A stretch of 7,329 bases of DNA from a virus. Its lineage: Duplodnaviria; Heunggongvirae; Uroviricota; Caudoviricetes. Below the pieces are notes generated by a model. That model was not told the DNA's origin and did no database searches. It saw nothing but the letters and a program-made list of their open reading frames with translations. The DNA is taken from the IMG/VR virus record IMGVR_UViG_2681813205_000003; one strand, written 5' to 3'. This document shows positions 449 through 6,280 of this stretch, piece by piece; the stretch's first letter is position 1; each line of letters opens with the position of its first letter. The translations under genes and the position numbers were made by a program.

Positions 449-462
449 GGGGTTCACTCCTG

Positions 463-537
463 AAAAAAAAATCGGGCGGTGGGTGCGCGGTGTAAACGGT
501 CACGGAGTCAGACCGGAACACCGCGCACGCCGCCCGC
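463..537 (-). terminator. GC-rich two-segment inverted repeat followed on the minus strand by a 9-nt U-run, in the M-L intergenic gap; candidate intrinsic terminator/attenuator or RNA stability element
   Basis: Plus-strand arms tcgggcggtgggtgcgcggtg (472-492) and caccgcgcacgccgcccgc (519-537) pair as a 10-bp inner stem (GTGCGCGGTG/CACCGCGCAC) plus a 7-bp outer stem (CGGGCGG/CCGCCCG) with a small internal bulge. The 26-nt loop has its own CGGTC/GACCG mini-hairpin. A9 at 463-471 on plus gives U9 directly 3' of the stem on the minus-strand transcript, just before the L ribosome-binding site. Confidence 0.45.
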
Positions 538-552
538 TGACGGGGTCAGTCG

Positions 553-1353
553 TTAACCGCGCTTCGCCTTCTGCGTCGCGGTGGTTTTTCGTGTTGCAGG
601 CTTCCGCGTTGTCTTTTTACTTTTGCTGCTTTCGTCCTGCGCCTGCTGTGCGCTGGCGTCTTCTGATGCGCCTGCGGAATCGGCTTTTTTCAGGGCGCGG
701 GAAAGGGTTGCAATCTCGCGTTTCACACCTGCGTTCGGGTTCAGGTGCATTGCTTCGCGCAGCAGCTTCAGTGACAGGGCCATGCTGTCCGCATCACTCA
801 GACCACGACGGGCAAAGGCGCACGCCTTGCATAATTTGGCGCGCACTTCGTCCGGCATGTCCTGGTTGGCGACAATTTCCCAAAGTGTGTCCAGTGGTTC
901 GATAAAGGCGGATAAATCCGCGTCGGCATCCGTCCCGGCCTGCGTCAGTACCGGGTTGCAGATTTCTTCGGTCAGTACCGTGGCTGCAGTACGTCCAAAG
1001 TTATCCGGCATGATGAGGTTGTGACGGACCACATATGCACCAATACGCAGCGCCAGCGGAAGATCGCCGCAGTCAATCGCCCACACCATCAGCGTGGCAA
1101 TCACTTCATCCTGCTGCCCGCCGTCAGCCTCCAGCGTTCCCTCAATCCAGCCGGAAAAGTCCGGCAATAACTCTTTTTTGATGGCGGCTTTCGCGCTTCT
1201 GGCCTGTACGCCCTTAAGCCGGGCCTGTGCCAGACGCAGACGATACAGCACCTCTTCATGCGCGGTACGCGCGGCGTGGTCCACGCCTTCATTCGCCCGG
1301 CCTGCGCGCTGTGCCATCACGTTCTGCCAGTGTTGCTGTGCAGGAGTAATCAT
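553..1353 (-). CDS. M: Terminase small (endonuclease) subunit, P2 gpM-like
   Basis: 266-aa ORF from ATG at 1353 to TAA at 553-555 (complement), with GGAGAG upstream. The translation (MITPAQQHWQNVMAQRAG...EVLYRLRLAQARLKGV...IATLMVWAIDCGDLPLALRIGAYVVRHNLIMPDNFGRTAATVLTEE...) fits the P2 gpM family as I recall it, and it sits between N and L as in P2. It ends in a low-complexity basic tail (KSKKTTRKPATRKTTATQKAKRG). Confidence 0.85.
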   Translation of the reverse strand: MITPAQQHWQNVMAQRAGRANEGVDHAARTAHEEVLYRLRLAQARLKGVQARSAKAAIKKELLPDFSGWIEGTLEADGGQQDEVIATLMVWAIDCGDLPLALRIGAYVVRHNLIMPDNFGRTAATVLTEEICNPVLTQAGTDADADLSAFIEPLDTLWEIVANQDMPDEVRAKLCKACAFARRGLSDADSMALSLKLLREAMHLNPNAGVKREIATLSRALKKADSAGASEDASAQQAQDESSKSKKTTRKPATRKTTATQKAKRG

Positions 1354-3311: not shown

Positions 3312-3465
3312 AGTTTTTGCCCCTCTGACTGGTTCTTCAGTCATGATGGCAAAGCGTAACAGGCTGATACAAAGGGCTTTTGTTGTAAGAAAACGGCCAG
3401 AACAGGGGGTTAAGGAGAACAGTTTCGCGCGCGGGTAATCTTCCTGTAATTACTCAGGGGGAGCA
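3312..3465. promoter_or_regulatory. Divergent intergenic control region between O (minus) and P (plus); expected site of the two late promoters
   Basis: 154-bp non-coding gap between divergently transcribed operons, as at the P2 P/O junction. It contains a partial dyad TGTTGT...AGAACA (3381-3404), a small ACAAA/TTTGT inverted repeat (3369-3386), a CGCGCGCG palindrome (3426-3433) and a TGTAAT -10-like hexamer (3445-3450). No exact TGT-N12-ACA activator dyad and no clean sigma70 -35/-10 pair found by eye. Confidence 0.5.
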
Positions 3466-5217
3466 ATGATTCAGGACGCTTTTGTGCGCCAGCGTGCGCG
3501 GCAACTTTACTGGCAGGGTTATCCGCCCGCAGAAATATCACGTCTGATGGGAATAAACCCGAACACGATTTATGCGTGGAAAAAACGCGACCAGTGGGAT
3601 GAAACGCCACCCGTGCAGCGTGTCACGCAGTCCATCGATGCGCGCCTCATCCAGCTTACTGAAAAACAGAATAAAACAGGCGGTGACTTTAAGGAAATAG
3701 ACCTGCTGACCCGGCAGCTTAAAAAACTGCATGATGGCCAGCCGGATGCGACGGCCACAGGAAAGAAAGGCCGGGCGAAAAAACTCAAAAATCATTTCAC
3801 GCCGGAACAGATTGCCGCACTGCGGGAAAAAATCATCAGCAGGCTGGAGTGGCATCAGCGGGGCTGGTTTGACTCCCTGACCCTTTGCAGGGAAGCCGGG
3901 ATACGTAACAGGATGATCCTGAAATCCCGACAGATTGGGGCGACCTGGTATTTTGCACAGGAAGCACTGCTGATGGCGCTGCGTGACGATGTGGCGCAAC
4001 CTTACCAGCGTAACCAGATTTTTTTGTCTGCGTCGCGTCGTCAGGCGTTCCAGTTTAAAAGCATTATTCAGAAGGCCGCGGCTGAAGTTGATGTGGAGCT
4101 GAAAGGGGGCGATAAAATCATCCTCTCCAACGGCGCAGAGCTGCATTTTCTCGGCACTTCTGCTGCGTCGGCACAGTCCTATACGGGCAATTTTTATTTT
4201 GATGAATTTTTCTGGGTCAGTCGCTTTGCTGAACTGCGCAAGGTGGCTGGCGCTATGGCAACCCTCAGCGGACTGCGGCGCACCTACTTCTCCACGCCAT
4301 CCACCGAAACGCACGAGGCATACGCCTACTGGAATGGCGACCGCTGGAACGAGAAAAAGGCCTCGCATAAACGCCAGCGTTTTTCTGTGGACTGGAAAAC
4401 GCTGCATAACGGGCTTATCTGCCCTGACCGGACGTGGCGGCAAATTGTCACGCTGGAAGATGTGGTTAATCACGGCTGGAAACACACCGATATCGACGAA
4501 ATTCGTGATGAAAACACCGAAGACGAGTTCCTCAATCTCTATATGTGTGAGTTTGTCCGCGAAGGGGAATCGGCATTTAACCTGAATATCCTGATTGGCT
4601 GCGGTGTTGACGGATACGACGACTGGAAAGACTGGAAACCTTTTGCTCCCCGACCGATGGGGAATCGTCCGGTATGGATTGGGTATGACGCAAACGGCAG
4701 TAGTGGCAACGGCGACAGCGGCGCTGTGTCCGTTGTGGTTCCTCCGGCTGTTCCTGGTGGCCGTTTTCGAACGGTGGAGACTCGACGCGTTCAGGGGCTG
4801 GAGTTTGAAGAGCAGGCCAGAGTCATTGAAGAGTTCACGTATCGCTACAACGTGGAACACATCGGCATTGATGTGACGGGCGGGAACGGGGAGGCTGTTT
4901 ATCAGATAGTGAAGCGGTTTTTCCCTGCTGCTATTCCGTACACCTTCACGCTGTCATCAAAACGGTCGCTGGTACTGAAAATGCTGCAAATAATGCGTGC
5001 CGGGCGGTGGGAATACGATCGCGCCGAACGCGAGCTGGTCGCGGCCTTTAACGCCGTGCGTAAGGTGAAAACACCGGGCGGCTTTATCACTTACGAAACG
5101 GACCGAGCGAGGGGGATCAGCCACGGCGACCTTGCGTGGGCAACCATGCTTGCTGTCATTAACGAACCGATTGGCGGCGAAGGAGAAAACGAGCGTTTCA
5201 CGGTTATGGAGTTCTGA
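3466..5217 (+). CDS. P: Terminase large (ATPase) subunit, P2 gpP-like
   Basis: 583-aa ORF with a G-rich ribosome-binding site (cagggggagcaATG). N-terminal HTH-like segment (YPPAEISRLMGINPNTIYAWKKR), deviant Walker A-like KSRQIGATWYFAQ and Walker B-like FYFDEFFW, all typical of P2-type terminase ATPase subunits as I recall them. Its stop overlaps the start of the portal gene. Confidence 0.9.
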   Translation: MIQDAFVRQRARQLYWQGYPPAEISRLMGINPNTIYAWKKRDQWDETPPVQRVTQSIDARLIQLTEKQNKTGGDFKEIDLLTRQLKKLHDGQPDATATGKKGRAKKLKNHFTPEQIAALREKIISRLEWHQRGWFDSLTLCREAGIRNRMILKSRQIGATWYFAQEALLMALRDDVAQPYQRNQIFLSASRRQAFQFKSIIQKAAAEVDVELKGGDKIILSNGAELHFLGTSAASAQSYTGNFYFDEFFWVSRFAELRKVAGAMATLSGLRRTYFSTPSTETHEAYAYWNGDRWNEKKASHKRQRFSVDWKTLHNGLICPDRTWRQIVTLEDVVNHGWKHTDIDEIRDENTEDEFLNLYMCEFVREGESAFNLNILIGCGVDGYDDWKDWKPFAPRPMGNRPVWIGYDANGSSGNGDSGAVSVVVPPAVPGGRFRTVETRRVQGLEFEEQARVIEEFTYRYNVEHIGIDVTGGNGEAVYQIVKRFFPAAIPYTFTLSSKRSLVLKMLQIMRAGRWEYDRAERELVAAFNAVRKVKTPGGFITYETDRARGISHGDLAWATMLAVINEPIGGEGENERFTVMEF

Positions 5218-6263
5218 TGAGCAGAAAAAATAAAAAAGTGCGCATGAGTTCACGCATTGATCTCGCTGATGCGCTCAGGAAAGAATCATCGCTCAGTGCA
5301 TTCACATTTGATGGTCCTTATCGCCTGACCGGGCATGACCTGCTGGATAATATGTACTGTGCTGATAACGGGCGGTGGTATGAAACCCCGGTGGACTGGT
5401 ACGGTCTGGCAAGAGCTGCCCGGCAAACGTCCTGGCATCAGTCTGCGCTTTACTTTAAGCGCAATGTATTACTCGGTTGCTACATCCCGCACCCGTTGCT
5501 TTCCCGGCAGGATTTCTCGGCGCTGGCGCTGGACTGGTTTGTGTTCGGTAACGCATTCCTTGAGCTTCGAAGCAATATGCTCGGCGAACCGCTTAAATTA
5601 CGGCACGCCCTGGCGAAATACATGCGACGCGGAAGCGATCTTGAATCATGGTGGTATGTGCAGGATGGCAAGGGCGCGTTCCAGTTTCGCCCTGGCAAAG
5701 TGTGCCACCTGATGAATCCGGACATTAACCAGGAAATCTACGGCATGCCGGAATATCTTGGCGCATTACTCTCGGCCAGCCTGTCTCATTCGGCGGACAT
5801 GTTCAGAAAACTGTACTACGACAACGGATCCCACGCCGGGTGCATCATCTACATCGGTGCAGCGCAGGTAAACCGCGAAAGCATGGACTCCCTGAAGGAA
5901 ACGCTACAGGGGGCACGTGGTGGTGGTGCGTTTAAAAACGTGCTCATTCATGCGCCCAACGGGGGCAAAGAGGGGGTGCAAATTTTGCCGTTCCAGCAGA
6001 TCACCGCAAAGGATGAGTTCATGAATGTTAAGGCGGCATCCCGTGATGATGTGCTGGCTTCGCACCGCGTTCCGCCGCAACTGATGGGGGCGATGCCGGG
6101 CGAAAAAAGTGCGTTTGGTGATGTGGAGAAGGCAGCGCGGGTTTACGCAATTAACGAGCTGATGCCTGTCATGGAGGCCATGAAGCACATCAATGACTGG
6201 CTTGGTGAAGAGGTGATCCGTTTTAATTCTTATGCTCTTCTTGATGAAAAAACAGCCCCGTGA
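5217..6263 (+). CDS. Q: Portal protein (capsid portal vertex), P2 gpQ-like
   Basis: 348-aa ORF starting at the ATG in the TGATG overlap with the P stop (5215-5219). The translation fits my recollection of P2 gpQ / PBSX-type portal proteins, and P followed by Q matches P2 order. It ends at TGA 6261-6263, inside the loop of the downstream terminator hairpin. Confidence 0.9.
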   Translation: MSRKNKKVRMSSRIDLADALRKESSLSAFTFDGPYRLTGHDLLDNMYCADNGRWYETPVDWYGLARAARQTSWHQSALYFKRNVLLGCYIPHPLLSRQDFSALALDWFVFGNAFLELRSNMLGEPLKLRHALAKYMRRGSDLESWWYVQDGKGAFQFRPGKVCHLMNPDINQEIYGMPEYLGALLSASLSHSADMFRKLYYDNGSHAGCIIYIGAAQVNRESMDSLKETLQGARGGGAFKNVLIHAPNGGKEGVQILPFQQITAKDEFMNVKAASRDDVLASHRVPPQLMGAMPGEKSAFGDVEKAARVYAINELMPVMEAMKHINDWLGEEVIRFNSYALLDEKTAP

Positions 6264-6280
6264 TGGGGCTGTCCTTTTTA
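6245..6280. terminator. Bidirectional intrinsic terminator shared by the convergent Q gene and the 6278..6802 ORF
   Basis: Stem acagcccc (6252-6259) / ggggctgt (6265-6272), 8 bp, with a 5-nt loop gtgat. It is followed on plus by ccttttta (T5) and preceded on plus by gaaaaaa (6245-6251), which gives a U-run after the same hairpin on the minus strand. The stop codons of both convergent genes abut or overlap the structure. Confidence 0.7.

Follow-up and report, generated by a model that had tools for sequence, protein, structure and literature searches.

A family-wide, covarying RNA fold with invariant unpaired nucleotides fills the M-L spacer of most P2-like phages

Introduction

The 7,329-nt stretch of DNA analyzed here (IMG/VR record IMGVR_UViG_2681813205_000003; its full length is referred to as the window) corresponds to the head-gene region of a P2-like prophage, of the P88-like type (Xuanwuvirus) and not P2 itself. 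Our results show that the spacer separating its M gene, encoding the terminase small subunit gpM, from its L gene, encoding the head completion or head-tail adaptor protein, is filled by a family-wide, single-copy and covarying RNA fold with invariant unpaired nucleotides, hereafter the M-L element. On balance, the comparisons presented below favor the view that this element would be a cis-acting intercistronic RNA device, read by a factor, that uncouples the upstream head messages from L and the genes that follow.

P2, 186 and phiCTX are textbook temperate phages, and the control of late genes in P2-type phages is usually described in terms of an Ogr-type activator and four promoters. A covarying and strongly conserved RNA structure placed amid the main head operon implies an unrecognized layer of control acting after initiation, which could involve transcript partitioning, processing or factor binding.

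Results

Architecture of the M-L element in the window

Read on the minus strand, coordinates 552-449 are exactly the 104-nt spacer between the M stop codon (TAA, 555-553) and the L start codon (ATG, 448-446). Directly after the M stop, the element comprises a mini-hairpin and then a long, bulged hairpin. The mini-hairpin, P1 (CUGAC-ccc-GUCAG, 549-537), has a 5-bp stem and a triloop made of C only. The long hairpin rests on a 7-bp outer stem of G·C pairs exclusively (CGGGCGG, 536-530, paired with CCGCCCG, 479-473), which is separated from the inner stem by a 1×3 internal loop consisting of a single bulged C on the short side (529) and a bulged CCA on the long side (482-480). The inner stem contains 10-11 bp, its 5' strand being GUGCGCGGUG(U), that is GUGCGCGGUGU (528-518), and its 3' strand (A)CACCGCGCAC, that is ACACCGCGCAC (493-483). 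It is capped by an apical region of 24-26 nt (517-494) that folds into a 5-bp sub-stem (515-511 with 501-497) and a 9-nt loop. The hairpin is followed by A472 and nine U residues (471-463), located directly 5' of the Shine-Dalgarno (SD) region of L (GGAG, 460-457).

The predicted stability of this structure is well above that of shuffled sequences. The 64-nt main hairpin alone reaches -44.5 kcal/mol (z = -6.8), and the 90-nt element reaches -50.3 kcal/mol (z = -7.0), none of 200 shuffles being as stable; both hairpins are present in the minimum free energy structure of the 90-nt element. A preliminary description of the window, made from its letters alone, had reported a GC-rich, two-segment stem followed by U9 on the minus strand, and this is borne out (7 bp plus 10-11 bp). 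The small upstream hairpin (549-537), which is part of the same element, had escaped that description, and the distance of about 15 nt that it gave between the U-run and the L ribosome-binding site needs correction, as the U-run ends 2 nt before the SD and 14 nt before the L ATG.

The element lies within the late O operon

In line with the operon position proposed in the preliminary description, the GenBank annotation of P2 gives one O-to-S transcript, covering O, N, M, L, X, Y, K, lysA/B, R and S, and P88 displays the same unbroken gene string. The curated P2 record leaves the M-L gap without any annotated feature, and places a 'putative attenuator' further downstream in the O operon, within lysC. 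The gap measures 99 nt in P2 and 92 nt in 186, where it corresponds to the R-Q gap.

The closest relatives of the window are P88-type phages of the genus Xuanwuvirus, with 95.6-97.2% identity across the M-L junction; in their records the genes on either side of it are annotated as terminase small subunit and head completion or head-tail adaptor. Of 5426 complete E. coli genomes searched with this junction as a 121-base query (440-560), 1081 contain it (median, one place per genome), and among the matches listed it was always located between gpM and the head-completion gene.

The fold is conserved across P2-like phages of Beta- and Gammaproteobacteria

The outer stem and both bulges of the window are found in the corresponding gaps of P2 and 186, which read GGGCGG-C-ACGCCGGU…ACCGGCGU-CCA-CCGCCC. 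Their inner stem differs in sequence from that of the window and keeps its pairing. Past the hairpin, P2 reads GACUUUUCAGAGG and 186 reads AACCUGAUGAGG. A comparable arrangement, AAGGGG-C-GGAUUUUAAAGGG…CCUUUUAAAAUCC-CCA-CCCCUU, without U-run, is present in a Mannheimia phage whose genome has a G+C content of 41%.

By scanning one genome per bacterial species with an alignment of M proteins, we recovered 80 prophage loci from hosts that include Xanthomonas, Pseudomonas, Burkholderia, Cupriavidus, Ralstonia, Halomonas, Pasteurellaceae and many enterics, thus covering Beta- and Gammaproteobacteria. The layout directly after the M stop is common to almost all of them, and phiCTX-like, Acidovorax and Shewanella phages have the element too. 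The apical region varies between lineages both in sequence and in length (19-44 nt). At the nucleotide level the spacer is about as conserved as its flanking genes, being 72.7% identical between P2 and 186 (genes, 71-72%) and 61.5% identical between P2 and P88 (genes, 54-55%).

Two loci have long spacers, L092 and L122, and in both the element adjoins the M stop, leaving 75-85 nt between it and L. The additional sequence between element and L is a REP-like palindrome in L092 (about 1965-2050) and a C-rich stretch in L122 (about 1944-2015).

Covariation and invariant positions

From a plain MAFFT alignment (71 sequences), RNAalifold recovered unaided 6 pairs of the outer stem and 7 pairs of the inner stem. 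Compensatory changes were detected in 11 of these 13 pairs, namely in 4 of the 6 outer pairs and in all 7 modelled inner pairs. On that same alignment, 96.3% of the cells hold a standard pair, compared with 70.0±1.1% in shuffled alignments and 40-52% when the partners were slid by 1-3 columns, and the covariation score is 0.581 against 0.136 after shuffling. On a model-fitted alignment, which leans toward the structure, 98.9% of the cells are paired. G·U pairs outnumber A·C mismatches by 11:3, which modestly favors an RNA of the sense strand.

A covariance model built from the MAFFT alignment gave a single match each in P2 (64.6 bits), P88 (62.1 bits) and the window (61.9 bits; 468-560, minus strand), the next best match in these three sequences having E > 4. 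Across the loci, 88 of 91 contain one match, every one of them on the M-sense strand and at M-L. Neither the window (at E ≤ 1) nor the element in 16 diverse loci matched any family of Rfam 15, which includes the C4 antisense RNA, ribozymes and riboswitches, and ARAGORN reported 0 tRNA or tmRNA genes in the window.

Along with the fold, about 20 nucleotides are conserved. The single base on the short side of the internal loop is a C in all 82 distinct family members, and the two G-C pairs closing this loop are invariant (81/81). On the opposite side, the last two bases of the CCA bulge are C and A in all 81 sequences, the first being C in 78 of them and U in the other 3. The CCC of the mini-hairpin loop and a CCGA just past the stop codon are invariant as well, and the unpaired positions are nearly free of G.

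As for the mini-hairpin, a stem of at least 4 bp with a C-rich, G-free loop can be formed by 35 of the 49 unique upstream sequences, compared with 3.0±1.5 in shuffles. At least 13 different stem combinations occur, such as GCGC/GCGC in P2, GCUC/GAGC in 186 and, elsewhere, GCGG/CCGC, GCGU/ACGC and GUCG/CGAC. The mini-hairpin nevertheless appears less secure than the main hairpin, its register moving by 1-2 nt between clades.

The U-run is a property of the allele

The length of the U-run differs from one P88-like copy to another. Among 77 copies, T6 occurs in 49, T7 in 25, T8 in 2 and T9 in 1, which is the window, and length varies even within a single hairpin haplotype. T9 is probably real, as it is also carried by two complete E. 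coli genomes, each from a different country. In P2 there is only a U4 (CUUUUC), separated from the stem by GAC, and 186 and most lineages have no U-run. The comparison with P2 and 186 that the preliminary description had proposed hence retrieves the hairpin in both phages and the U9 in neither, and the U-tract is best regarded as a recent addition in a few lineages, belonging to the allele and not to the family. Runs of 6-8 U directly after the hairpin are nevertheless found in a few other lineages (L077, L087, L089 and L158). In enteric relatives, a short U-stretch adjoins the SD of L instead of the hairpin (…UUUCAGAGG, …UUUCAGGAG; ACCUAUUUCAGAGG, ACCCUUUUCAGAGG). In the P88 lineage, by comparison, this U-rich part of the L ribosome-binding region appears to lie right against the hairpin and to have grown from U6 to U9.

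Terminator potential was evaluated with a Carafa-type score in an implementation of our own, which approximates the original. The window scores +10, P88 with its U6 scores -7, the P2 M-L element -41 and the 186 R-Q element -53; most of about 80 other lineages fall between -40 and -65, a range shared by Xanthomonas, Pseudomonas, Burkholderia, Cupriavidus and Mannheimia copies as well as by 186. For comparison, the annotated terminators of P2 score +40, +38, +18 and -3. The window thus displays two hallmarks of intrinsic terminators, a G·C-rich hairpin and a U-tract of about 6-9 residues within 2 nt of the stem. It departs from a third, the compact hairpin with a loop of 3-8 nt, since the hairpin is 64 nt long and has a 1×3 loop and an apical region of 24-26 nt; a simple terminator scan restricted to loops of 3-8 nt does not list the M-L site. 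The U9 allele has the anatomy of a moderate intrinsic terminator, which would have to be leaky because essential genes follow and no separate promoter is known for L and the genes beyond it.

Within the 77 P88-like copies, most single-nucleotide polymorphisms fall in the apical region or are rare, uncompensated stem variants.

Discussion

A putative intercistronic device at the end of the head-gene segment

Termination cannot explain the existence of the element, since conservation extends to the hairpin but not to the U-run. Judged by sequence, the conserved function would not be intrinsic termination, which is at most an extra property of the allele present in the window. We consider it somewhat more probable than its competitors together that the M-L element is a cis-acting device located at the end of the O-N-M segment (scaffold, capsid and terminase) of the late transcript that starts at P_O. 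According to this model, a very stable 3' hairpin would present a recognition surface resembling a C-loop, and a conserved factor, be it a nuclease, RNA polymerase or a phage protein, would probably read this surface, most likely through the invariant 1×3 loop. In this way the amount, half-life or translation of the head messages would be uncoupled from those of L and of the tail and lysis genes, and the U9 allele would add a moderate, leaky terminator on top of the element. The position of the element in loci L092 and L122, where it stays by the M stop in spite of the long spacer, speaks for an action where the upstream message ends. In this regard, the fallback offered in the preliminary description, a determinant of RNA processing or stability, can be reconciled with our findings.

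A broader proposal, to which we give tentative credit, is that the element represents a new RNA class, absent from Rfam 15, whose specific recognition by a protein or enzyme would control the switch from head to tail and lysis genes throughout the family, termination being only an occasional by-product of U-runs. The recognition could be, for example, that of an RNase P- or RNase III-type processing signal, an element modifying RNA polymerase or an operator for a late phage protein. A hairpin or attenuator internal to an operon is of a known kind, and what is new here is the conserved architecture with its invariant loop, possibly amounting to a new RNA class. We found no description of the element in the literature surveyed, although an early remark in the papers reporting the sequences of P2 (Linderoth 1991) or 186 (Portelli 1998) is possible.

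Several observations weigh against the proposed device. The covariance model finds no element in the HP1/K139 clade, where HP1 has a different long hairpin before its L homologue and K139 has a 106-nt gap without significant fold, and the copy of the alphaproteobacterial Haematospirillum is degenerate and has no bulge. A plain hairpin that blocks exonucleases would need fewer than the roughly 20 invariant nucleotides found, and rare uncompensated stem polymorphisms occur in P88-like prophages. Moreover, assignment to a sense-strand RNA is based on gene context and on the 11:3 ratio of G·U to A·C, and the terminator scores are approximate.

Alternative explanations

The possibility raised first in the preliminary description, that of a partial terminator or attenuator setting the stoichiometry between O, N and M on one side and L with the genes downstream of it on the other, is supported in the window by a 7-bp G·C stem base, one A and then U9, by a score of +10 that lies within the range of the annotated P2 terminators, and by the U6-U8 runs that follow the hairpin in L077, L087, L089 and L158. 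As to anatomy, and to the expectation that any termination must be partial, that proposal stands. As the conserved function of the element it fails, given that most members have no U-run and score -40 to -65, that the U4 of P2 comes only past GAC, that 64% of the P88-like copies carry T6, and that intrinsic termination makes no use of the invariant nucleotides (C/CCA loop, CCC loop, CCGA); the curators of P2 placed no terminator here either. Pure attenuation is, in our view, unlikely. We assign the same low likelihood to a translational device for L, in which the hairpin and the pyrimidine- or U-rich spacer would constitute an operator or a standby or enhancer site, U9 would act as a translational enhancer, and ribosomal protein S1, a phage protein or terminating ribosomes brought near by the fold would be the candidate partners. 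Its appeal derives from the geometry of most lineages, whose hairpin ends 2-10 nt before the SD and 13-32 nt before the L ATG, from a spacer that is C/U-rich everywhere, from the U-stretch tied to the SD in enteric relatives (…UUUCAGAGG/…UUUCAGGAG), and from the agreement of the 1×3 loop with the published description of the C-loop (PMC9516175). The 75-85 nt that separate the element from L in L092 and L122, where it remains at the M stop, argue in the opposite direction. Words resembling an anti-SD are found in 32 of 80 apical loops, compared with 12.7±3.3 in shuffles, an enrichment confounded by relatedness; SD-like words are also common, and the terminal loops of Xanthomonas vary freely. 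We therefore treat an anti-SD mimic in the apical loop as no more than a weak lead.

Less probable still is an action on the transcription machinery, either as nascent RNA that modifies RNA polymerase, in the manner of HK022 put, or as a structured site for Rho loading or for opposing Rho. Two adjacent hairpins with invariant unpaired, C/A-rich and almost G-free positions, which precede a U-run in some lineages, are suggestive of such a role, and transcription must proceed about 3.5 kb further, past the 'putative attenuator' of lysC. Sites of the put type, however, lie near promoters and the element is about 2.8 kb downstream of the start of the O operon; Rho sites are normally unstructured; and a likeness to the RfaH ops site was discarded, only GGCGG being shared, which covaries to GCCGG in Xanthomonas. 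Very little weight falls on a fold of single-stranded DNA, which would serve lagging-strand priming or primosome assembly during rolling-circle replication as the F-G hairpin of phiX174 does. Covariation alone does not separate RNA from single-stranded DNA, and according to the P2 annotation replication proceeds by rolling circle from a nick in gene A, gpB is needed for the lagging strand, and nick and late genes are on the same strand. The element nonetheless fills precisely the mRNA spacer from stop codon to SD and tolerates G·U over A·C (11:3), and we know of no such priming site reported for P2. At the far end of the scale, a chance palindrome, an insertion of the REP or MITE type or a homopolymer artefact of assembly has practically no probability. 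Homopolymer length is error-prone in long-read assemblies, but T9 appears in two further independent genomes; the hairpin itself has z = -7, is present as a single copy per phage genome and always at M-L, recurs in the same context, among the matches listed, in about a fifth of complete E. coli genomes, which carry a P88-type copy, and covaries across Beta- and Gammaproteobacterial hosts. Among the rivals, only this one, the origin of the hairpin by chance or from a mobile element, is refuted.

Similarity to known systems

The putative factor-read device shares individual features with several known systems. Like intrinsic terminators and operon attenuators, the window has a G·C-rich stem with U9 within 1 nt, inside an operon whose distal genes are needed. 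Unlike them, the element consists of a 64-nt hairpin with an internal loop and a structured apex of 24 nt, has no U-tract in most members and keeps about 20 nucleotides invariant for reasons other than termination. Intercistronic hairpins that stabilize mRNA are known from the REP sequence of malE-malF and from the puf operon, and RNase III sites such as R1.1 from T7. The resemblance to these lies in a stable hairpin between cistrons, after genes needed in large amounts, and in the case of R1.1, for which only the layout was compared, also in upper and lower stems parted by an asymmetric internal loop. The M-L element differs from these systems in being single-copy and not a dispersed repeat, in its very G·C-rich stems and in an internal loop that is invariant in sequence across Beta- and Gammaproteobacterial hosts.

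Another cis-acting phage RNA, the put RNA of HK022, likewise combines two stem-loops with conserved unpaired nucleotides, within a long transcription unit containing terminators; the M-L element differs in being far from a promoter, and we know of no sequence similarity between the two. C-loops are protein-binding motifs found in rRNA, in the thrS operator and in loop 26 of a viroid, and the one known C-loop of a bacterial mRNA has been reported to act in translational regulation (PMC9516175). In terms of two-dimensional pattern only, as the base triples that define the motif are not readable from sequence, the M-L internal loop resembles a C-loop in being an asymmetric loop within a hairpin whose longer strand has 3 nt and starts with C, and in having a single C opposite, as in loop 26 of PSTVd (C172 versus U187-C188-C189) (PMC9516175). 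The cabRNA of staphylococcal phages is likewise a structured phage RNA transcribed in the terminase gene region, and it is known to trigger CBASS immunity (PMC10686824). It belongs to phages of an unrelated family, is encoded within the terminase subunit genes instead of a spacer, and is not homologous to the M-L element.

The natural series of U-tracts, U4 in P2, none in 186 and U6-U9 in P88-like phages, offers a test of how a homopolymer turns a structural RNA into an attenuator. Additionally, the covariance model could be used for the annotation of P2-like prophages.

Additional observations on the window and its relatives

Upstream of M (1353-553), the minus strand of the window carries O (3344-2475) and the major capsid gene N (2451-1399), and L runs off the end of the window. 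P (3466-5217) and the portal gene Q (5217-6263) are on the plus strand. The late-promoter activator site TGT-N12-ACA has no match in the divergent P-O promoter region (3345-3465) or in the M-L spacer, and the window contains it twice in all (5782 and 7135), which is no more than chance would give; P88-type phages may have a late-activator site that differs from that of P2.

The last 45 residues of M (222-266; window 553-690, minus strand) form a low-complexity tail rich in Lys, Arg, Ala, Gln and Thr, whose length differs among lineages. All tblastn matches to M end at residue 221, even at 98% identity, presumably due to the low-complexity filter.

An attenuator-type alternative pairing between the upstream CCGA/CCCC segment and the 5' arm was considered and dropped, as it is inconsistent between clades and absent in the window. 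Read-through from M into L or a fusion of both was likewise dropped, the 104-nt spacer of the window containing an in-frame TGA and the spacer of 186 being 92 nt long. One fusion does occur, by deletion: in locus L078 (IMGVR_UViG_2597489865_000010, 1830-1880) the C-terminus of M and the 5' half of the element have been lost, leaving the remnant …GCGCCCACCGCCUG-AUUUUU-CAGGAG, and M is joined in frame to L in an open reading frame of 406 aa. This is probably a defective prophage.

The long hairpin of HP1 (GUGGCGGGC…GCCCGCCCAC; L173, 16493-16567; z = -3.2) falls within the 3' end of M as annotated and closely precedes the SD of the L homologue. HP1 is annotated without an M-L gap, and its M reading frame may be over-extended; the gap region of K139 corresponds to L174, 18285-18390. 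Locus L169 (OR820920.1), recorded as 'Bacillus phage vB_BpuM-ZY1' with Bacillus pumilus as host, contains an M-L element of typical proteobacterial type (65% G+C, 51.4 bits), similar to those of Halomonas and Kushneria, and this host assignment looks doubtful.

Two further hairpins were noted in the window. On the plus strand, ACAGCCCCGUGAUGGGGCUGU followed by CCUUUUU (6252-6279; z = -4.0) overlaps the end of the portal gene Q, at a position matching the curated tQ terminator of P2, with a Carafa-type score of only -11. On the minus strand, a second intercistronic hairpin, GGCGGGCA-uca-UGCCCGCC (1368-1391; -17.6 kcal/mol, z = -3.6), begins 10 nt past the N stop in the 45-nt N-M gap and has no U-run. 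This gap comprises only 3 nt in P2, so the N-M hairpin is specific to the P88 lineage, and its location directly after the capsid gene fits a design of segmental mRNA stability.

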